Shown: positions 18,459 to 51,971, counted from the first letter of the stretch. The stretch is 64,000 bases of DNA from an uncultured Candidatus Saccharibacteria bacterium (GCA_964586065.1 CAZPFW010000001.1:195614-259613), one strand, 5' to 3'. A program made the numbers and translations. The notes: generated from the sequence alone by a model not told the origin.

Positions 18459-18819
18459 GGGGATGCCCAGGATTCGATAGAGATGTGGGTTAGTTGGTGC
18501 GAACCGAGTATTCTTGAATCTCGTTAAACTTCAAGAAATCTAAAATAAGTGCCAACTTATTCAACAAAGAAGCTGCGTTAGCATACGCATAACGCCATCC
18601 ATTCTTCTGACTTCCGATAAGAAGATTCGGGTGTTATAAAATCGGAATAGGTGTTTCGGATTTTTGATCTTTTAAGAAGCATCAAATCGGAAAAGATCAA
18701 GGTTGTAAGGGTTTTGCTCAATTTTATACCTTGCAACTTTTTAAAAATTGAGCTATGTTCGTAGATCTGATTAATACAACATTCTCTAGACGCGGGTTCA
18801 ATTCCCGCCATCTCCACCA
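18459..18819 (+). ncRNA. ssrA: tmRNA (transfer-messenger RNA)
   Basis: Starts GGGGATG directly after the smpB stop and ends GGTTCAATTCCCGCCATCTCCACCA (T-arm plus acceptor plus CCA). Tag ORF at 18551-18592 is GCC AAC TTA TTC AAC AAA GAA GCT GCG TTA GCA TAC GCA TAA = ANLFNKEAALAYA*, preceded by AAAAUAAGU as in other tmRNAs. Confidence 0.9.
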
Positions 18820-42817: not shown

Positions 42818-45532
42818 TTAAAGGCTAAATTTATATTTTAATAAATGTGCGTCCTTTTTGTTAAATTTTTGTTCCAACGCTCCTATGATTTTATTCTGAG
42901 TTTCGGGCGTCCAATAAATTTTCAACTTCTTTTTTGCTCTTGTAATCGCCGTATAAAATACGTTGTGAGAGATTCTCTCTTCTGTTTCATTCGTAATAAC
43001 AATTTTTACAGAATCGTATTCTAAACCTTGCGCCTTATGGATAGATACAGCGTAAGCAACCTGAAAAGGTACAATATCTGATGCAGAATCATCGTCATCT
43101 TCATCCGTACTCCTAAGCTTGTTAGCACTAAATCGGATGACAGATGTGGCTTCTTCAATGCTATCCAACAACTCCAGATCATCGTATCCTCGAATATCTA
43201 GCTCAGAAATCACTTTATCAATTTGAATATCAAATTGGATTCTTTCCTCGAATATTTGAATATTAAGTATTTTCCCTTTTAGATTGTTGTGGATTACTGA
43301 TCCAAACCTATTGGATTCATTAAATAAAACAGGATCGTCAGTTTTGTATGTATGAACTCCCCACGCTACTGGTTTTTTCTCGTTACTTTCCTGTAAAAAT
43401 CTATTGATGTTATTTATGCCATAAAATCCATCGTAGTTTAGACACAAAATTATTTCATCATCTTCGGAGTGTTTAAAAATTGAATCATCCAATTTACTCG
43501 AATATTTGTTTTGTGTTATGTGCTCATCAATATCTTCCTCGAGGTTTCGAACTTTATCCCATAATCTCAACAGGTCACTATTATTTTTTGCGCGCCAGGG
43601 GACGGTTAATTCAATTGCGGATGATTCTGGGACAAAACTCTTGGCTATATAAAACCAATTTCCAAATCGAATTGATTCTATTTGGAATATATCTCCGACA
43701 AGAATTAGGGCCCCAAAGGATGCCTTCCTAAGTATGTCACGCATATCTATATTGCTCACGACGCTACACTCATCAATAATTAAAATATCAAACTCTGTTC
43801 TTTCCCCATTTCCGTTCAAAAAACTTCTTATTGTTTTAAATTCGGTGTTTTGAGCAGTGATCCTGCTTCTTAAATTACTAACTGCAGAGTGTGTATTCGC
43901 CAAGTAAAGTTTTGATCTTTCATTATGAAATTTGGAGATATGCTCTATCAACTTTGTTTTCCCTGTTCCTGCAGCACCATAAATTAACGACACTTTGGAA
44001 GCCGTAAACATACCCCTAAGCGCTGCTTTTTTCTGAGAACAATCAACATCCGAATCCGGCGAGGCTAGCCATGCATTAATTGAATTCGAGTAATTTTTTA
44101 TACCTGATGCCGATAAATCTTTTAACTTTCTAACAATTTCAATAACAGCGTTTTCGTATCCGGTAATGTAAACGTGATCTTTATATATTTCAAGTTTGCG
44201 ATCCCTCTGGGTTTCAGTACCCTGGTAAAGCAAACTATTAAATTTATCTATGAGTCCATTAATATCCTCGAAATGATTCATGTCTTCTATCGGTGTGTAC
44301 AACCATCCCTTAATTTCCGCGTTGCTTGTTATACGTCGAGCAAATAATTCATGCTCTCTACCAGTGTCATCTATACAATCTAACAGATCATAAATTACGG
44401 GAGTATGCTTTACGGGACAACTAGCAAAAGGCATTTCATCAAAAGGAATACACCCATACAGAAGATTTAGGTTTGATAATTTTAAGTTACCGTCCCTATT
44501 ATATTGCTCTTTTATAACCCTATTATTTAGGTGGTAAAGTAAGTATCTAAGTACATTGGTTCCGGGAGAACGCTTCTGCACAAACTCACGACTTTTATCT
44601 AACAAATCAAGTATTCGGGCCGTTGTAGCCTTTTGGGTAATTCTATTTTTAAATCTATTGTAGTAATTATCGGGAAAATCTATTATTTCAATCAAGTTCA
44701 AACCATTTTCTGTTAAAAAAGACATTATTTCATCGTATTCTTTAGTTTTGCTGTATTCTTTAGAATCTGAGGCAAAGATATTTTCATAATTCTTAAATTC
44801 ACACGGGCGTATCGAAACTTCCCAATCATCTATAATCTGTATCGGCATTCTCTTACCCGACACCTCAATGTAATCTCTGCTAACAATAAATTTCACTGCA
44901 TAGTTCTCAATTATTTCCAATTTTGTAAAAGCAATAAGCCTATCAAACTTGCGAGTCTTGTCATCAGCAATTCTAAAGGTCACTTCATAAAATATTTCTT
45001 GGTTTACAAAGAAAGGTTTTACTTTTTGTATATAAAATCTTTCGTTATATCCACTGCTTGCCAGTCTTGATTGTGGTTCTTTTATTTTTTTTGCTATTTT
45101 TTCATAGTACTCATTGAGCGTCCGATCCGTATTTAATGGGAACTTATCGATATTATTTAAAACCTCAAAATTATAGGCTGTCTTTAAGAAAGATTTAATT
45201 TTAAGTAGATATTCATAGTACTTCAACATTAATCTTTCTGAAACTTCTTCGTCAGTCGCATAGTGTGATTTTGAATGTTGAAGAAATTTATGAAATTTAC
45301 TCAAAAATCTTAAGTTAGCTTTCGAAGCGACGTAATTTTTTGCTTTATCCTCAAAAATCTCATAACTATATTCGGTTTCACCAGCAGCCTTGACGGAGAT
45401 GGCCTCAACAAAAGTCCTTAGTTTATCCAAGATGTTTTGTGATAAAAATCCTCGCTGGTCCGCACTAAATGTATCAATTAGTTTGCATATTGATTCGTTA
45501 ACTATATTGATTTGTTCATCTACTTTTCTCAT
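42818..45532 (-). CDS. SF1 (RecD/Pif1/TraA-like, AAA_30 + UvrD_C_2-type) helicase with ~510-aa uncharacterised N-terminal region
   Basis: GAAGTGKT (aa519-526), ILIIDECS (583-590), LVGDIFQ (611-617), AVSIHKAQGLEYDSV (828-842), YTAITRAKKKL (860-870). No motif recognised in aa 1-510. Confidence 0.8.
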   Translation of the reverse strand: MRKVDEQINIVNESICKLIDTFSADQRGFLSQNILDKLRTFVEAISVKAAGETEYSYEIFEDKAKNYVASKANLRFLSKFHKFLQHSKSHYATDEEVSERLMLKYYEYLLKIKSFLKTAYNFEVLNNIDKFPLNTDRTLNEYYEKIAKKIKEPQSRLASSGYNERFYIQKVKPFFVNQEIFYEVTFRIADDKTRKFDRLIAFTKLEIIENYAVKFIVSRDYIEVSGKRMPIQIIDDWEVSIRPCEFKNYENIFASDSKEYSKTKEYDEIMSFLTENGLNLIEIIDFPDNYYNRFKNRITQKATTARILDLLDKSREFVQKRSPGTNVLRYLLYHLNNRVIKEQYNRDGNLKLSNLNLLYGCIPFDEMPFASCPVKHTPVIYDLLDCIDDTGREHELFARRITSNAEIKGWLYTPIEDMNHFEDINGLIDKFNSLLYQGTETQRDRKLEIYKDHVYITGYENAVIEIVRKLKDLSASGIKNYSNSINAWLASPDSDVDCSQKKAALRGMFTASKVSLIYGAAGTGKTKLIEHISKFHNERSKLYLANTHSAVSNLRSRITAQNTEFKTIRSFLNGNGERTEFDILIIDECSVVSNIDMRDILRKASFGALILVGDIFQIESIRFGNWFYIAKSFVPESSAIELTVPWRAKNNSDLLRLWDKVRNLEEDIDEHITQNKYSSKLDDSIFKHSEDDEIILCLNYDGFYGINNINRFLQESNEKKPVAWGVHTYKTDDPVLFNESNRFGSVIHNNLKGKILNIQIFEERIQFDIQIDKVISELDIRGYDDLELLDSIEEATSVIRFSANKLRSTDEDDDDSASDIVPFQVAYAVSIHKAQGLEYDSVKIVITNETEERISHNVFYTAITRAKKKLKIYWTPETQNKIIGALEQKFNKKDAHLLKYKFSL

Positions 45533-45567
45533 AGCTCGTTTCTGCTTATTCTCCTAACCCTGGTTTC

Positions 45568-48021
45568 TTAAGATTTAATATTTGTATTTCCACAGGAACA
45601 CCTCACTGAATCCGGCGTCTTTGGCGGCGTTGTAATTAAATAAAAGAGACTAGAACACTCTGGCTTTTGACAGAAGAACTTACTTACTAAATTGCGGAAA
45701 GCGGTAACTACGGGAGTAAAATCATTAACAGCAAAATTTGCCCATTCATTGTAGTGAATGGCTGGATTAACTTGCCATTGTTCAGCGTTAGTCGCGAGAA
45801 AAGAGTCGCCAAGGCTCTTTTCTCGAGCCTTAAGAGCTTCGGCTATATCAGTTGTTTTCCAAGCTTCAGCGGTCTTTGCGCCATCAAGCATAAGATCACG
45901 AAAATGTCGGATAGCCGGAGCAAGCATGTCTCCCAATTTATAACGACCATCACCTCTAAACTCAACTCTTACATGAAGACTATCACATACCTCTCTAAAA
46001 ACATACTCTAGATAATAACGAAGCAGGCTGGCAGCCGTACGAACATCATTTGTTTTTAATGCGTTATCTATTTCAGTCCACACATCGCGCGTTTTCCATT
46101 CAGCTGGTCCATGATCGGGAGTCCAATTACTAAAATGAGTGGCGTTGATAGGTTTAATGAGGCCGGCTGTTGTCATTAATTTTAACCAAACTTCGTCGTG
46201 TGTTGTGAGAATAAATTGTGTATTTGGAAAATACTGTTTTAACAAATTACAGACTTCACGACGATGGACCGTATCAACCGACATCAAGACGTCATCAAGC
46301 ACTGCAAACCTAAAATTATTCCCTTGCAATTTTTTCATCAACGCCAAATACAGACAGAGACCCATTGCGTCTTGATGACCTTCGCTGTGATACGCGCCCG
46401 GAGGAAAATGCCCACGACCATAAAAATCAACATCAAAACCTAACTTACCAATAGATGGAGTGAGTTTCGCAGTAAAACTTCCTTCGTCCTCGATATTAAT
46501 AGCGCAGTATAAGCTCGAGAATTCGCCCTCAACATCCTTATAGACATCTTCTAATGCTTTATTGCTAACATCCGTATAAATGTCATATATCTTTTTAGTT
46601 AATTCAGCGCGTTTTTTTGCCTTATCAGCTTCGCGAGCTGCTTTTCTATAAGTTTCAAGACGATCTTGTGCTCGGATAATATAATCGCGTGCAGCCTCCT
46701 GCTGTGTAGGTTCTGGTATGGCTGTCACGGCCTTCTCAATATCCGCGATAATTTTTGTAATACTTTCCGGTATAACTGGAATTTTTTCAGTGGCAGATAT
46801 TGTATCAGTTAGAGGGAGAAAGTTTTTTAGTGATTTGCGATAAGACGCCAGTGATGCCCGATAAGCTGCAAGAGATATTATGTGTTCAGTGGTGAAAACT
46901 TTTGCCAATTTTTCTATTAAAGTAATGGCGTCATCGACTTTGTCAATAAGTGAAATGATTAGCTCTAGTCGAAGTTCAAGTTCTGTTCGCGTTTTTGTTA
47001 CCTCTTCAAATTTTTGAAGTTTGGCACGAATAAATCCCTGCAGCGTGGGCATATCCCATTTAGTGTCACAAACTGGGCAAGCTTCTTCCGTAACAAAATC
47101 AATAGCAGTTCGTAAAAATTTTTCGCGGGATACACTTTCCGTGGCTATTGGGTTGTTGCTTAAAATACTAAGTTTATCTTTCAAATCTAAACACTCTGTT
47201 GCCATTTTTTCGCTGGTAATTTTTTGCAATTCGTCAGAGCATAGTTTCAAATCTGCCAACGCAGACGTTTTATTAACCTTTGGGAGGGCTGCCACTTTTG
47301 TACTAGTTTCCAACCCATCATTAAAAGCCGTGGTTGCGGTTAAATCTACAAGTTGTGTTAAACCGAGAATAACGCGACGTAAGTTAATAGCTTCTAAAAT
47401 CTTGTTCTTTTCTATGTCGGAAATTTCTAGAGCCTGCGCCAAACTTTCACTAGCTTGAGATTGTACTCTCTTAAAATCCTTTGACTCCTTATCATATGAA
47501 TTTGAGATAGTTTTTAAATTACTTCGTAATTCTCCCACCTGATCAAGACGCAAAAGTGCCTGCACCTCCTCTGATCTGTTTCCTGGCTTTGATATTACAT
47601 AACGTATAATTTCTCGGCGTGATAACACAAACTCTGGATGTCCATCAAACTGCGATAGAGCAGCAAGTATTTCTGGAGAAGTAGGAGTAATGCTTGGTGT
47701 AGTCGGGTTTTTAACATTCCTAACAAGCATCACTTCCTTATCAGCAAGCGATGATATTTTTAATACAACGGTAACACAAGCTTTTTCTGGGTTATCTCGA
47801 CTATCGACGTGCGGAGCGTGCTTTTTAACCGAAATATTGCCCATGCCTTCACCTGATAAACGAGAAATATTCCCCGTTAAAGCAAACTCAAGCGCATCGA
47901 CAACCCCGCTTTTACCCGTGCCGTTTGGACCACATATTGCATAATTTTCACCGTTAAAATCGAGGGTTAGATTACGAATACCGCGGAATTCTTCAATTTT
48001 AATTTTTTCGACTTTAATCAT
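45568..48021 (-). CDS. ABC/SMC-type ATPase with coiled-coil insert carrying a CPVC zinc-hook-like motif (Rad50/SbcC/RloC-like architecture), unassigned C-terminal domain and terminal Cys4 ribbon
   Basis: IEEFRGIRNLTLDF..ICGPNGTGKSGVVDALEFALTG (aa 9-50), helical region ~165-500 with ACPVCDTKW at 314-322, YHSEGHQDAMGLCLYLAL (544-561), FAVLDDVLMSVD (572-583), ILTTHD (604-609), C-terminal CQKPEC..CSC (784-810). Confidence 0.75.
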   Translation of the reverse strand: MIKVEKIKIEEFRGIRNLTLDFNGENYAICGPNGTGKSGVVDALEFALTGNISRLSGEGMGNISVKKHAPHVDSRDNPEKACVTVVLKISSLADKEVMLVRNVKNPTTPSITPTSPEILAALSQFDGHPEFVLSRREIIRYVISKPGNRSEEVQALLRLDQVGELRSNLKTISNSYDKESKDFKRVQSQASESLAQALEISDIEKNKILEAINLRRVILGLTQLVDLTATTAFNDGLETSTKVAALPKVNKTSALADLKLCSDELQKITSEKMATECLDLKDKLSILSNNPIATESVSREKFLRTAIDFVTEEACPVCDTKWDMPTLQGFIRAKLQKFEEVTKTRTELELRLELIISLIDKVDDAITLIEKLAKVFTTEHIISLAAYRASLASYRKSLKNFLPLTDTISATEKIPVIPESITKIIADIEKAVTAIPEPTQQEAARDYIIRAQDRLETYRKAAREADKAKKRAELTKKIYDIYTDVSNKALEDVYKDVEGEFSSLYCAINIEDEGSFTAKLTPSIGKLGFDVDFYGRGHFPPGAYHSEGHQDAMGLCLYLALMKKLQGNNFRFAVLDDVLMSVDTVHRREVCNLLKQYFPNTQFILTTHDEVWLKLMTTAGLIKPINATHFSNWTPDHGPAEWKTRDVWTEIDNALKTNDVRTAASLLRYYLEYVFREVCDSLHVRVEFRGDGRYKLGDMLAPAIRHFRDLMLDGAKTAEAWKTTDIAEALKAREKSLGDSFLATNAEQWQVNPAIHYNEWANFAVNDFTPVVTAFRNLVSKFFCQKPECSSLFYLITTPPKTPDSVRCSCGNTNIKS

Positions 48022-48212
48022 GTTTTTATATTTCCATTGGAAAATAACGCCGCCTTAAGTTCCTCAACTGAAACCCTACCCTCATCCATGAGAGTTTTTT
48101 TAAGACATCCGATAACTTCTTCCGACACTTTCTGGGTTCCCAATTCTTTTAAGAATTGATCAAATACTTGTTGCGGTACACTTATTATTTTATTATCTGT
48201 TTTATCTGACAT
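48018..48212 (-). CDS. 64-aa hypothetical protein, translationally coupled to the ATPase gene
   Basis: ATGA start/stop overlap at 48018-48021; 8-nt gap to the upstream ORF; predicted helical; no family recognised. Confidence 0.45.
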   Translation of the reverse strand: MSDKTDNKIISVPQQVFDQFLKELGTQKVSEEVIGCLKKTLMDEGRVSVEELKAALFSNGNIKT

Positions 48213-48220
48213 GTTTTTGA

Positions 48221-49039
48221 TTATTTAAAATAAATTGCTTTATCTAGTTTCTTAAATAAAAAATTCAGAAAAGATAGTAAATCTAGTGTTTCATCTCTAT
48301 CAATTGGCCAATCCAACGCTGGCTCGTGAGCCTGGGGATTACGAATGGCTCTCATCAGCCCAACTGAGAGATGCATGACACCCTCCTGTTCATTCTTTTC
48401 CATCCTGGTTTACTGAGCATTAAGTTTAAGGGTTCCATTAAGCGCCAACACATTCTCCATTAAACGCGATCCATATTCCTGCGACGAGGATTTTTCTTGG
48501 ACATCTTTATCGTAGACTTTGCAGCATTCAAATACCGCGTGGAAATAATTACCTTCGGTAAACAATTTTCTTGCGTGCTGATTAATTTTGTTATGGAAAC
48601 GACGTTCATCAAATATCTTGGCGTTCTCCGGTATTGTTTTGGTAAGAGACGTTGCCTTCTCATTGGACTTCCTTAGCTTACCGTCCTCGCCAACTAACAG
48701 ACCATAGAATTTAAGAATTTGATTTACTTGTTTGCAAATTTCCTCGTGTCTTTCTGGCACGGAAAAATACTCCTGAGGATCGCATAACTGTTGAATCAGT
48801 TTTGCAATGTTAAACGTGCCATAAGTTTGTTTCTGCATTGCCTCGAGCGAGGCATAAACAAAACGCCATTTGGTTCCGCCATCGTGGGTTATCTCCGGAA
48901 AACCAGCCTTGCGAAAAAGCTCGGTTATTTCCGATCCGGTGTAGTTATCCCCAATTATTTTAGACAGCGCTTCAAGCGCAGATAATTTGAATGGTTCTAA
49001 TTCCATATTCACTACATTTTCAAATAATTCACTATCCAC
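48221..49039 (-). pseudogene. TIGR02391/Hypoth_Ymh-family (HEPN-type) protein interrupted by one in-frame TAA (48410-48412)
   Basis: ORFs 48410-49039 and 48221-48403 are in the same frame (..LKLNAQ * TR MEKNEQEGVMHLSVGLMRAIRNPQAHEP..). The family's conserved block (FTEGNYFHAVFECCKVYDKDVQEKS..G..LM..V...LKLN....EQEG...L..G....IRNPQAH) spans the stop. RNPQAH is an Rx4H HEPN motif. Confidence 0.75.
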
Positions 49040-49107
49040 TTCCGTTTTCGTAAGATTTTCGGTATACTATGAATATATCACTTGGAGATAAAACATCAAT
49101 CACACTT

Positions 49108-49584
49108 ATGGCCATTCCGATAACAAAAAGACAAAAAGAAGTCCTAGACTTCATAAAAGGCTTTATCCGAGATAAAGGCTACTCCCCAACCTTAGAGGAG
49201 ATAAGGAAAAAATTGCAGCTGTCCGCAGTGTCTACGGTGCACCAGCACATTGACGCTTTGATTGATAAAGGTTACATCAAGAAATTTAATAACCTGGCCC
49301 GGGCTATTGAGATAAATGATTTTAATGAAAAAAGGCAAAATAATTTTATTGAAATTCCCTTGCTGGGAATGATTGCCGCCGGTGAGCCGATAGAGGCCAT
49401 CGAAATACCAGAGACAGTTTCAATTCCCAAAGAATTAACCGCCGGCCAGGGACGACATTATGCCCTAAGGGTCCGAGTCGTGAACAACGTTAGAACTATC
49501 ATACAAGATCAAAAAAGACATGTTTGTCTCCCCAATCTGGAGAACTATACCAAGTTTACATTAATTAAAAAAGAGTGTGATTGA
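49108..49584 (+). CDS. LexA-like repressor fragment: N-terminal winged-HTH plus AAGEP cleavage-site linker, S24 peptidase domain missing
   Basis: ITKRQKEVLDFIKGFIRDKGYSPTLEEIRKKLQLSAVSTVHQHIDALIDKGYIKK..IPLLGMIAAGEPIEA..HYALRV is LexA-like. After about nt 49477 the frame reads unrelated sequence (VVNNVRTIIQDQ..) and stops. No Ser/Lys catalytic motifs in any frame downstream. Confidence 0.7.
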   Translation: MAIPITKRQKEVLDFIKGFIRDKGYSPTLEEIRKKLQLSAVSTVHQHIDALIDKGYIKKFNNLARAIEINDFNEKRQNNFIEIPLLGMIAAGEPIEAIEIPETVSIPKELTAGQGRHYALRVRVVNNVRTIIQDQKRHVCLPNLENYTKFTLIKKECD

Positions 49585-49713
49585 ATTAAGTCTAAACGAA
49601 ACACCCTTATCTCTCTTGCCCATAAATGAAAAGGCACCGCTAAGGGACAAAACCCAGAGAAGTGCCTTTTCGTAATGATCCTGTTCTTATTTTAATCGCT
49701 TAGCTATTTCTTG

Positions 49714-50220
49714 TCAACCCCTGCCTACCCCCTTAGTGTACTCTAACTTGCCTCTCAGGTTTTCTATAAAGTCTATTCTCTCTTTAGCTTTTTTTCGTAA
49801 AAGAATGGAGCACTTTTCTTTCCCTGGGCTTAAGACTGTTTTTAACTTGCCCTCTCCATAAAGATATTCAACCAAAGAATAGAAATCGCCATCGCTTGAA
49901 ACTATCACAGCCTTATCATACCTATCAAAGTTAATCATCACTTGTAAGACCAGATCTGCATCAATATTACCCTTTGCCCTTCCACTGTGATCTTTGATGA
50001 TAGGTTTAAAGATAAGCTCGTATCCGTATTTTTGTAAGTTAGTATAAAGTCTTTGGTTTTCTAGTAAGTAGCCAATAAAAAGATATGTCGTTTTAACTGA
50101 ATATTTTTCTTTAAGATAGGTGTTAAATCTCTTAAAGTCTAATTTCCATCCAAGCTCCTCAATGCCCATTTTCAAATTTTGGCTGTCGATAAAGGCGTAA
50201 TTATTTTCCTCTCTTTTCAT
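49714..50220 (-). CDS. NYN-domain (LabA/DUF88-like, PIN-fold) protein
   Basis: NYAFIDSQNL.., GNIDADLVLQVM, AVIVSSDGDFYSLVEYL are the NYN acidic motifs. Confidence 0.8.
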   Translation of the reverse strand: MKREENNYAFIDSQNLKMGIEELGWKLDFKRFNTYLKEKYSVKTTYLFIGYLLENQRLYTNLQKYGYELIFKPIIKDHSGRAKGNIDADLVLQVMINFDRYDKAVIVSSDGDFYSLVEYLYGEGKLKTVLSPGKEKCSILLRKKAKERIDFIENLRGKLEYTKGVGRG

Positions 50221-50279
50221 GCTTGGATTATATCATAAAAGTAACAAAAAATCCGAGTTCTTAACTCGAATCAATTTTG

Positions 50280-50625
50280 CTCCGCGGGTAGGATTCGAAC
50301 CTACGACCAACCGGTTACAATTGCCTCCAAATTTCTTTGAAGATTGGACTATATCATTTCCCAATATCTGTTGGGAATCGGGCGCTTCCTTCAGCTCATT
50401 TGACGCCAAAGTACTCCATTTTAGGATAGTCTCTGCACCTTCCTTGATGAAGATCAAGGCTTGGCTCAGGATTGCCTTATGTTAGATACACTTAGGTTTC
50501 CCTGAATTCACCCGATTTTTCAACCACAGTTACCTGTAGAAGCTGCAACTTGGTATAAAGCTTTGACTAAGAATGAAAGATATACCTCTTTACAGCCGGT
50601 CGCTCTACCACTGAGCTACCGCGGA
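50280..50625 (-). tRNA. tRNA-Asn(GUU) interrupted in the anticodon loop by a group I intron (exons 50625-50592 and 50317-50280)
   Basis: Exons join to TCCGCGGTAGCTCAGTGGTAGAGCGACCGGCTGT|TAACCGGTTGGTCGTAGGTTCGAATCCTACCCGCGGAG. This gives a perfect 7-bp acceptor stem (U1-A72), G73 discriminator, 5-nt variable loop and anticodon loop CUGUUAA. It is near-identical in pattern to Bacillus-type tRNA-Asn as I remember it. No encoded CCA. Confidence 0.85.
50318..50591 (-). ncRNA. Group I self-splicing intron, IC3-like (tRNA-intron family), 274 nt, no ORF
   Basis: Core blocks as in the cyanobacterial tRNA-Leu and Azoarcus tRNA introns: CAGGGAAACCUAAG (50504-50491), AAGGCAAUCCUGAGCCAAGCC (50478-50458), GGAAGGUGCAGAGACU (50443-50428), AGUCCAAUCUUCAAAG. 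P1 is exon GGCUGU (50597-50592) with IGS GCAGCU (50546-50541), with U.G at the splice site. The intron ends in G (50318). GNRA-capped hairpin CUACAG-GUAA-CUGUGG (50539-50524). Confidence 0.85.
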
Positions 50626-50681
50626 ATATTTATTCAATTATCAACGAAACAATCTCACTATAGCTAAAACAATGAAATTTC

Positions 50682-51971
50682 TCAATAGCCTTTAAGCTTC
50701 TTAACTGACTCATGCATTCTTATCTTTTCCAAGGACTTTGCTTCAATCTGTCTTATCCTCTCTCTGGTCACTCCAAAAACTTTACCCACCTCCTCAAGAG
50801 TATGAGTTACTTCATCTTCAAGTCCAAATCTCATTGAAAGAATCTTCTGTTCTCGAGGACTTAAATCAACCAAGATATCCTCAAGTCTTTCTCTTAACAA
50901 ACTTCTGGCGGCTTCAAGTGACGGAGGAGCTGTCTTACTGTCTTTTATGAAGTCGGCCAATATACTGCTATCGGCATCGTCACTCACCGGAGCTTCCAAG
51001 GAAGCCGTTCTTTGGAATATTTTTGTAATATGGTTAACTTTGTCCACCGGCAAGCCCATTTCTGCAGCCACCTCTTCTGTTGTGGGTTCTCTACCCAAAC
51101 TTTGTAAAAGCTCTCTTCTTATCTTGCTGTATTTTGATATCGTCTCGATCATATGAACCGGAATTCTGATTGTTCTTGCTTGATCGGCCAAAGCTCTGTT
51201 TATCGCTTGTCTTATCCACCAAGTGGCATAAGTTGAGAATTTATACCCCCTTCTCCAATCAAACTTCTCAACCGCCCTGAAAAGCCCCAAGTTTCCTTCT
51301 TGAATAAGATCAAGCAGAGTCAAATTATTGGATTTGCCAATGTATTTTTTGGCGATTGAGACTACTAATCGAAGGTTGGCTTGAATAAGCCTTGACGTTG
51401 CTTGAGAATCTCCTTTCTCTATCCTCCTGGCCAACTCTTTTTCTTCGTCCGCAGTTAAGAATGAAGTTTGTGATATCTCTTTCAAGTATATCTGTATGGG
51501 ATCAACTTTAAGCTTCAGATCCTCCTTGTACTTCTTCTTGTCCGACTCTATCTCTAAAAGACCCTTTCTCTCTTTTATCTCAATTCCGTAAGTTGCCAGA
51601 TCGTCAATCAAGAGTTCAAGTCCTTTGATGTCTTTTTCCATATTTGGGAATATCGCTATTATCTCCGACAGAGTAACAAATCCTCTTGATCTGCCTTTGT
51701 CAAAAAGAGTCTCCTTTCTCTCTTTGGTAAAAACTTCCACCTTCTTTGTTCTTTTTTTAGTCGCGCTTTTCTTTGATGACTTTTCAGTTACTTTCTTAGT
51801 AACGGGTTTCTTGGCTGTGATTTTCGGCGAAGTCTTCTTGACTGCGGTCTTCTTCGGTGTGGTCTTCTTGGCTGCAACCTTCTTTGATTCGGTTTTTTTG
51901 GTTACAGGCTTATTTGCTGCACCCTTTTTTGCAGTCAATTTCTTCTTTGTTTTTGGTTTTTTAGTTGCCAT
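50682..51971 (-). CDS. rpoD: Primary RNA polymerase sigma factor with ~80-aa lysine/alanine/threonine-rich N-terminal tail
   Basis: Region 2 [13 protein letters not shown], region 3, region 4.2 [24 protein letters not shown]-terminus [45 protein letters not shown]... Confidence 0.9.

Follow-up and report, generated by a model that had tools for sequence, protein, structure and literature searches.

The survey of Williams (2020; bioRxiv 10.1101/2020.01.27.920355) raised the number of interrupted bacterial tRNA types from the four classical ones to 21 and catalogued tRNA-Asn(GUU) as a host under the name Asn.4Ug, with Pam37.Asn.4Ug included in its seed alignment. Nakagawa et al. (preprint 10.1101/2025.07.03.662931; mSystems 2026, PMC13011429) found 15 tRNA-Asn introns inserted between positions 35 and 36 in 95 complete Patescibacteria genomes and noted that such tRNA genes are missed or mislabelled by standard tools. 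A Patescibacteria homologue of this kind self-splices in vitro in a precise, GTP-dependent reaction whose sequenced product carries the 35/36 junction, and a mutation of its terminal G to C blocks exon ligation (PMC13011429). A related tRNA-Asp intron likewise self-splices in vitro with GTP alone (PMC13011429). [quoted passage not shown]

The locus analyzed here lies in a 64,000-nucleotide stretch of DNA (the window). In NCBI MAGs, proteins that share 90% identity or more with the RpoD and DnaG of the window are named "Minisyncoccales bacterium", which places the organism in the phylum Minisyncoccota/Patescibacteria; the contigs bearing these proteins extend to 0.35-0.63 Mb. We are highly confident that a tRNA-Asn(GUU) of this Minisyncoccales (Patescibacteria) organism is interrupted at U35|U36 by a 274-nt group I ribozyme that uses the standard splicing mechanism; the gene halves, the junction, and a complete covarying core (P1-P9, P9.0, and P7.1/P7.2) are directly observed. 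The arrangement is already catalogued and has been shown to splice in the same phylum, and the window holds a further ordinary example of it. Read on the minus strand, exon 1 runs from 50625 to 50592, the intron from 50591 to 50318, and exon 2 from 50317 to 50280, with the following parts and flanks:

50657-50685, minus strand: promoter-like site TTGAGA-17-TATAGT, about 30 nt upstream of the tRNA, a 10/12 consensus match only
50592-50625, minus strand: tRNA-Asn exon 1, positions 1-35, ending C32 U33 G34 U35 (sequence TCCGCGGTAGCTCAGTGGTAGAGCGACCGGCTGT; ARAGORN; identical on six public contigs)
50318-50591, minus strand: group I intron, 274 nt, without a family-matched ORF (Rfam RF00028, ARAGORN -i, covariation)
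50280-50317, minus strand: tRNA-Asn exon 2, U36 A37 A38 to G73 (sequence and ARAGORN; the spliced 72 nt align to annotated tRNA-Asn genes)
50250-50272, minus strand: intrinsic-terminator-like hairpin and T-run directly after the tRNA (sequence)

Exon 2 (TAACCGGTTGGTCGTAGGTTCGAATCCTACCCGCGGAG) begins TAACCGG and ends CCGCGGAG, with G73 at 50280 and no CCA encoded in the window, and the intron starts with AAAGAGG and ends with GCAATTG. The insertion point falls after the fourth nucleotide of the anticodon loop (CUGU|...G|UAA). Joining the exons yields a 72-nt tRNA with the anticodon loop CUGUUAA, U1-A72, and G73, and ARAGORN reads the sequence spliced in silico as tRNA-Asn(gtt) with a clean cloverleaf. 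When introns were allowed, ARAGORN called exactly one gene, tRNA-Asn(gtt) with a 274-nt intron at gctgt/taacc; by default, it called zero tRNA genes in the whole 64 kb. The spliced tRNA aligns over 72/72 nt, at 83% identity, to intron-less annotated tRNA-Asn genes of Synechococcus phages, and because the alignment has no gap at the junction, these genes serve as an "empty site" control for the exon boundaries. The match to the Rfam family Intron_gpI (RF00028), at 50567-50325 on the minus strand, is far beyond chance, spanning the full model (positions 1-253 of 253) and scoring 99.3 bits against a gathering score of 50 (E = 1.7e-24). Three conserved core strings, GGGAAACCUAAG, AAGGCAAUCCUGAGCCAAGCC, and GGAAGGUGCAGAGACU, are all exact in the intron. 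A first, sequence-only reading of the locus had proposed a group I intron between tRNA halves 274 nt apart, the three core strings, the Asn identity features, and a CUGUUAA loop split between U35 and U36, all of which are borne out here. It had left open whether an Asn(GUU) host was catalogued, which Asn.4Ug and the Patescibacteria experiments answer (PMC13011429). Its expectation for automated pipelines held in part: default finders do miss the tRNA, but the spurious ORFs that it foresaw at 50219-50485 are not called, as no gene is called between rpoD and the NYN gene on the identical public contigs L001 and L003.

The anatomy of the intron was assigned as follows, where intron position i is window coordinate 50592 - i:

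50590-50597, minus strand: P1 5' strand, exon GGCUGU plus intron A1 A2, with the 5' splice site after U35 (50592); read from the sequence, with covarying +1/+2 pairs
50549-50589, minus strand: variable hairpin extension within the P1 loop (intron 3-43), a different hairpin in every homologue; the minimum free energy (MFE) fold pairs intron 6-11 with 35-40
50541-50548, minus strand: P1 3' strand, the internal guide UUGCAGCU (intron 44-51); all 30 aligned sequences keep GCAGC, in every case just 5' of P2
50524-50539, minus strand: P2 hairpin CUACAG-GUAA-CUGUGG with a GNRA loop (intron 53-68); all 7 pairs compensatory in homologues
50509-50515, minus strand: P3 5' strand UCGGGUG (intron 77-83), pairing with 50378-50384; 99% paired, 3 pairs covary
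50437-50505, minus strand: P4-P5-P6 domain, with P4 UCAGGG/UCCUGA (intron 87-92 with 121-126), J4/5 AAA, P5 (96-98 with 115-117), P6 GCC/GGU (127-129 with 153-155), and P6a (133-150); homologue alignment and MFE fold
50427-50431, minus strand: P7 5' strand GACUA (intron 161-165), complementary to UAGUC at 50347-50351; invariant in 30 homologues
50415-50426, minus strand: P7.1 hairpin UCC-UAAAAU-GGA (intron 166-177); 4-bp helix, 99.6% paired in 66 homologues, 3 pairs covary
50389-50411, minus strand: P7.2 hairpin CUUUGGC ... GCUGAAG (intron 181-203); 97.2% paired, 5/6 pairs covary (66 homologues)
50378-50384, minus strand: P3 3' strand CGCCCGA (intron 208-214); homologue alignment
50358-50377, minus strand: P8 hairpin UUCCCAA-CAGAUA-UUGGGAA (intron 215-234); 4/5 pairs covary, MFE fold
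50347-50351, minus strand: P7 3' strand UAGUC (intron 241-245), preceded by J8/7 AUGAUA; homologue alignment
50325-50342, minus strand: P9 hairpin CUUCAAA-GAAA-UUUGGAG (intron 250-267) with a GAAA loop; all 7 pairs covary
50318-50320, minus strand: P9.0 3' strand UU (U272 U273) and the terminal G (omegaG, 50318), pairing with AA at 50344-50345 (A247 A248)

The cleavage-site wobble, U35.G46, lies within GGCUGUAA/UUGCAGCU, where exon GGCUGU faces guide GCAGCU (intron 46-51), and P1 continues two pairs into the intron (A1-U45 and A2-U44). The tail after P9 is GCAAUUG, whose last base is the terminal G274 (50318), and P10 is weak, at about 3 bp with a bulged U. Folding of the window intron alone recovered P2, P3, P4, P5, P6a, P7.1, P7.2, P8, and P9 in the MFE structure (z = -3.1). 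The fourth pair of P7.1 in the window is U.U, the sole unpaired case among 66 sequences. The Rfam alignment stops at 50325 (...GGAG), 7 nt before the true 3' end of the intron. G50325 was rejected as the terminal G: splicing there would give a 14-nt anticodon loop, the relatives all have a 6- to 10-nt tail after P9, and P9.0 covaries with the two nucleotides before G50318. The 5' hairpin of the Rfam alignment (intron 29-37 with 44-52) was likewise set aside as a forced fit that would sequester the guide sequence; it is not conserved, and relatives have unrelated hairpins at that place.

Homologues were collected by two scans. Species-representative genomes were scanned with the pattern GGCTGT N60-90 GGTGAATTCNNGGAAACC, which joins the exon end to the intron core, and 79 loci were returned. 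Of these, 67 hold an entire tRNA-Asn(GUU) gene that is interrupted at the same CUGU/UAA site by an intron with a terminal G, and three further loci are the same split tRNA-Asn cut by contig ends (70/79 in total). Most of the hosts belong to the Oscillatoriales cyanobacteria (Microcoleus, Tychonema, Phormidium, and Floridaenema); others are MAGs labelled Ignavibacteria/Ignavibacteriota, Sedimentisphaerales, Elusimicrobia, PVC group, Saccharibacteria, and Eubacteriales. The core motif GGTGAATTCNNGGAAACC was also found without a detectable split tRNA at L018, L078, and L085 (Accumulibacter and Burkholderiales MAGs) and at L030, L036, L043, L058, and L073, which may be group I introns in other genes or IStron-like elements. 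In an uncultured cyanobacterium (L024) and Argonema antarcticum (L053), the tRNA-Asn 35/36 introns are 898 nt long and contain an ORF of roughly 215 aa; the ORF of L024 matches LAGLIDADG_2 (PF03161, E = 1.6e-25), and that of L053 is nearly identical in sequence. The second scan, of metagenomes, used a signature of the window's own subgroup that is independent of the host gene (GCAGAGACTA N12 GTAC N12-42 GGAAGCGCC) and yielded at least 120 contigs. Among the matches listed, 80 of the 88 contigs with a split-tRNA call map directly to tRNA-Asn with the CUGU|UAA junction, and six of the other eight, on inspection and with an option giving U-1 and a terminal G, are also tRNA-Asn after correction of the 3' stem. 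ARAGORN labels of His, Pro, Asp, and Leu for some metagenome matches were rejected because the 3' anticodon stem had been mis-set inside P9. Resolvable metagenomic members of the window's intron subgroup are all in tRNA-Asn among the matches listed.

Helix strands were extracted by conserved anchors from 114 unique introns, 30 of which were kept at below 93% identity, and pairs were counted. Across these 30 homologues, in an alignment where some columns are fixed by the search patterns, 95.6% of helix cells are paired, compared with 80.9% in shuffled controls and 29-45% after the 3' partner is displaced by 1-3 columns, and compensatory changes occur at 35/58 pairs. Covariation was detected at all pairs of P2, P6a, and P9 and at several pairs of P3, P4, P6, and P8, with the P4 figures biased upward since its 3' strand was located by demanding at least 5/6 pairs. 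P7 is invariant and therefore gives no covariation information, and the exon part of P1 is without covariation evidence because it is fixed by the search patterns or by tRNA conservation. The +1/+2 pairs of P1 occur as AU, CG, GC, and UA, and the GCAGC guide is at the same place, just 5' of P2, in 114/114 anchor-extractable homologues, from an extraction that itself searched for GCAGC. The 2-bp P9.0 helix is paired in 30/30 homologues, again as AU, CG, GC, and UA, and this covariation identifies the terminal G as 50318 and fixes the 3' splice site.

The P1 pairing of GGCUGU with GCAGCU, its U.G at the cleavage site, and the terminal G thus stand as the sequence-only reading had them, whereas its label of an IC3-type intron fails because two covarying hairpins lie between the 5' strand of P7 and the 3' strand of P3. 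In the scheme of Michel and Westhof from 1990, IC3 introns are said to be those in which the P7 5' strand joins the P3 3' strand directly, without P7.1 or P7.2. Subgroup IA, by its structure, is recognized from extra P7.1/P7.2 helices between P7 and P3'. The window intron has both helices in that interval, and among 66 homologues of its subgroup, they are 98.2% paired with compensatory changes at 8/10 pairs. Nakagawa et al. classed 25/28 introns at 35/36 as IA, and a Bipolaricaulota tRNA-Asn intron that has the same core is entered as IA1 in their supplement (PMC13011429). By its extra hairpins and the published class of 35/36 introns, the window intron is assigned to subgroup IA, not IC3. It does share with the classical IC3 introns of Anabaena/Nostoc tRNA-Leu(UAA), Azoarcus tRNA-Ile(CAU), and Agrobacterium tRNA-Arg(CCU) a small size, the lack of an ORF, and a place in the anticodon loop; those introns are self-splicing ribozymes, to which the window intron is likened from its sequence. 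Near-identical strings are also shared with them, namely GGGAAACCUAA at J3/4-P4, GGCAAUCCUGAGCCAAGCC at P4'-P6, and GGAAGGUGCAGAGACU at P6'-P7, as judged against the Anabaena sequence and Williams' seed alignment. The classical introns differ in their host tRNAs, in their insertion at 34/35 or 36/37, and in a P7 that leads straight into P3'.

Compared with the published tRNA-Asn introns, the window intron resembles Asn.4Ug (Pam37) in its CUGU/intron/UAA arrangement, U-1, terminal G, and guide GCAGCY just 5' of a GNRA-capped P2. However, Pam37 matches the cyanobacterial subgroup (Floridaenema/Phormidium type), in which one long hairpin, capped by a GAGGAGCCUAACCAAUAA loop, separates P7 from P3' in place of the P7.1-GUAC-P7.2 of the window. 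For the Patescibacteria introns of Nakagawa et al., the phylum, the host tRNA, the U35/U36 site, U-1, the terminal G, and the failure of default finders are all the same, as is the order P1-P2-P3-P4/5/6-P7-extra hairpin(s)-P3'-P8-P7'-P9.0-P9-tail. A Paceibacteria example (GCA_016699245.1) shares the arrangement as P7.1-GUAG-P7.2 and is 62.5% identical to the window intron. Identity to the compared published sequences ranges from 55 to 63%, with about 55% to the experimentally tested homologue, and no match to the window intron was found among the sequences of the PMC13011429 supplement. The window intron differs in its P1 extension of about 41 nt, compared with a 5-nt loop in the tested Saccharimonadia intron, and in having no HNH endonuclease ORF, which four published Patescibacteria cases have.

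With standard group I ribozyme anatomy, two-step transesterification is the best explanation of how the gene would be expressed. A pre-tRNA of about 370 nt would probably extend from the promoter-like to the terminator-like site. In this precursor, exon GGCUGU, including two pairs of the future anticodon stem, would form P1 with guide GCAGCU, placing U35.G46 at the cleavage site, and a free guanosine in the P7 pocket would attack after U35. The terminal G274, positioned by the 2-bp P9.0 (AA/UU), would then replace the free guanosine, and the 3' OH of U35 would attack after G274. Exon ligation would yield the anticodon loop CUGUUAA, and CCA would be added to the 72-nt tRNA body. By likeness to the tested intron of its class, to which it is about 55% identical, the window intron may be expected to self-splice in a GTP-dependent manner (PMC13011429). 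We infer that the window copy splices in vivo and supplies the cell's tRNA-Asn.

The gene is conserved among related strains. The exact RpoD is present on 19 contigs, and 6/6 loci fetched from these, which come from different samples, carry an identical tRNA and intron 57 nt after rpoD. A 276-nt allele of the intron is present in L127 and L206 (GCA_050952485.1); it differs only by two extra nucleotides in the variable P1 extension and by two A-to-G substitutions, through which an A-U pair becomes G.U. An intron-less allele beside rpoD was sought in eight related loci (L001-L006, L127, and L206), and all eight carry the intron.

The DNA on the 3' side of the gene is more variable. In strains whose rpoD and tRNA-Asn are identical, the sequences diverge within about 1-12 nt of G73 (window 42818-50279 versus L002, L004, L005, L006, and L206). 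In the window, L001, and L003, the tRNA is followed by the terminator, an NYN gene, a LexA-like gene, Hypoth_Ymh, an SMC-like ATPase, and an SF1 helicase. [quoted passage not shown] With divergence just past G73 and a recombinase on that side, the 3' side of tRNA-Asn looks like an integration hot spot for islands. The 3' CCA is encoded in several other strains, for example L002, L004, L006, and L206 (...GCGGAGCCA), and absent from the window strain at 50276-50280 (...GCGGAGCAAAA), a difference that would fit the joining of different DNA to the end of the tRNA. A repeat of the tRNA 3' end was sought elsewhere in the window, and none was found. For the LexA-like ORF of the window (49069-49584, plus strand, 171 aa), Pfam gives the LexA DNA-binding domain alone, without Peptidase_S24, whereas the LexA-like gene of L206 has both; the window ORF may be truncated or divergent. 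Elsewhere in the window, a standard one-piece tmRNA lies at 18459-18819 on the plus strand (Rfam, 146 bits), with the tag peptide ANLFNKEAALAYA given by ARAGORN.

Four other explanations of the locus were weighed. Many group I introns require protein help in vivo, and the long P1 extension and AU-rich helices of the window intron might fold slowly, such that this genuine group I intron could need a host chaperone or maturase-like factor to splice in the cell. We regard such dependence as unlikely, given that Patescibacteria have very reduced proteomes and the window intron has no ORF, and that the tested homologue and the related tRNA-Asp intron need GTP alone in vitro (PMC13011429). It is very improbable that the intron is a decayed, splicing-dead relic in a tRNA pseudogene, with a second, intron-less tRNA-Asn elsewhere doing the work. 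[quoted passage not shown] Next to no weight can be given to a junction shifted two nucleotides, to 33/34, which would produce tRNA-Thr(UGU). For several homologues, ARAGORN did place the intron at 33/34 and read the tRNA as Thr(tgt) or Thr(cgt); ARAGORN and tFind often give such calls, and the same miscall is documented (PMC13011429). A shifted window intron would end in U (..GCAAU) rather than G, the covariation of P9.0 marks G50318 as the terminal G, annotated tRNA-Asn genes align with the tRNA body over its full length, and the sequenced spliced product of the homologue has the 35/36 junction (PMC13011429). Finally, the idea that small proteins are encoded here and that the RNA match arose incidentally can be dismissed with near certainty, because the two ORFs over the intron (50219-50485, plus strand, and 50233-50457, minus strand; 88 and 74 aa) had no match in a Pfam scan and no gene is called on the identical public contigs, and conservation tracks RNA pairing rather than codons. 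With 274 nt and these Pfam-negative ORFs, the intron also lacks the intron-encoded endonuclease of a homing intron.

With the window, a class of split tRNA genes that is already catalogued and experimentally validated gains a further member, from the order Minisyncoccales. The split tRNA-Asn in dozens of Microcoleus and other Oscillatoriales, and in several MAGs outside Patescibacteria, indicates a distribution wider than the picture of rarity outside Patescibacteria, which was drawn from complete genomes only. The covariation of P9.0 provides a simple sequence rule for placing the 3' splice site. The main practical value of the finding is for annotation and completeness estimates: since default tRNA finders miss the gene, the genome would seem to lack tRNA-Asn and would score as less complete, and intron-aware tools can mislabel such genes as tRNA-Thr. 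A more speculative suggestion, which we consider improbable, is that the split gene is the sole tRNA-Asn(GUU) of a reduced genome and that its intron acts as an RNA-level valve tying tRNA-Asn supply to the nucleotide or energy state of the cell. Strict conservation of the intron among strains is the one support offered for this idea, and a similar valve was raised as speculation by Nakagawa et al. (PMC13011429). If the split gene were indeed the sole tRNA-Asn, all Asn decoding in this organism would depend on a GTP- and Mg2+-dependent ribozyme, and if the valve were real, an intron with an unusually long, lineage-specific P1 extension would not be a neutral passenger.
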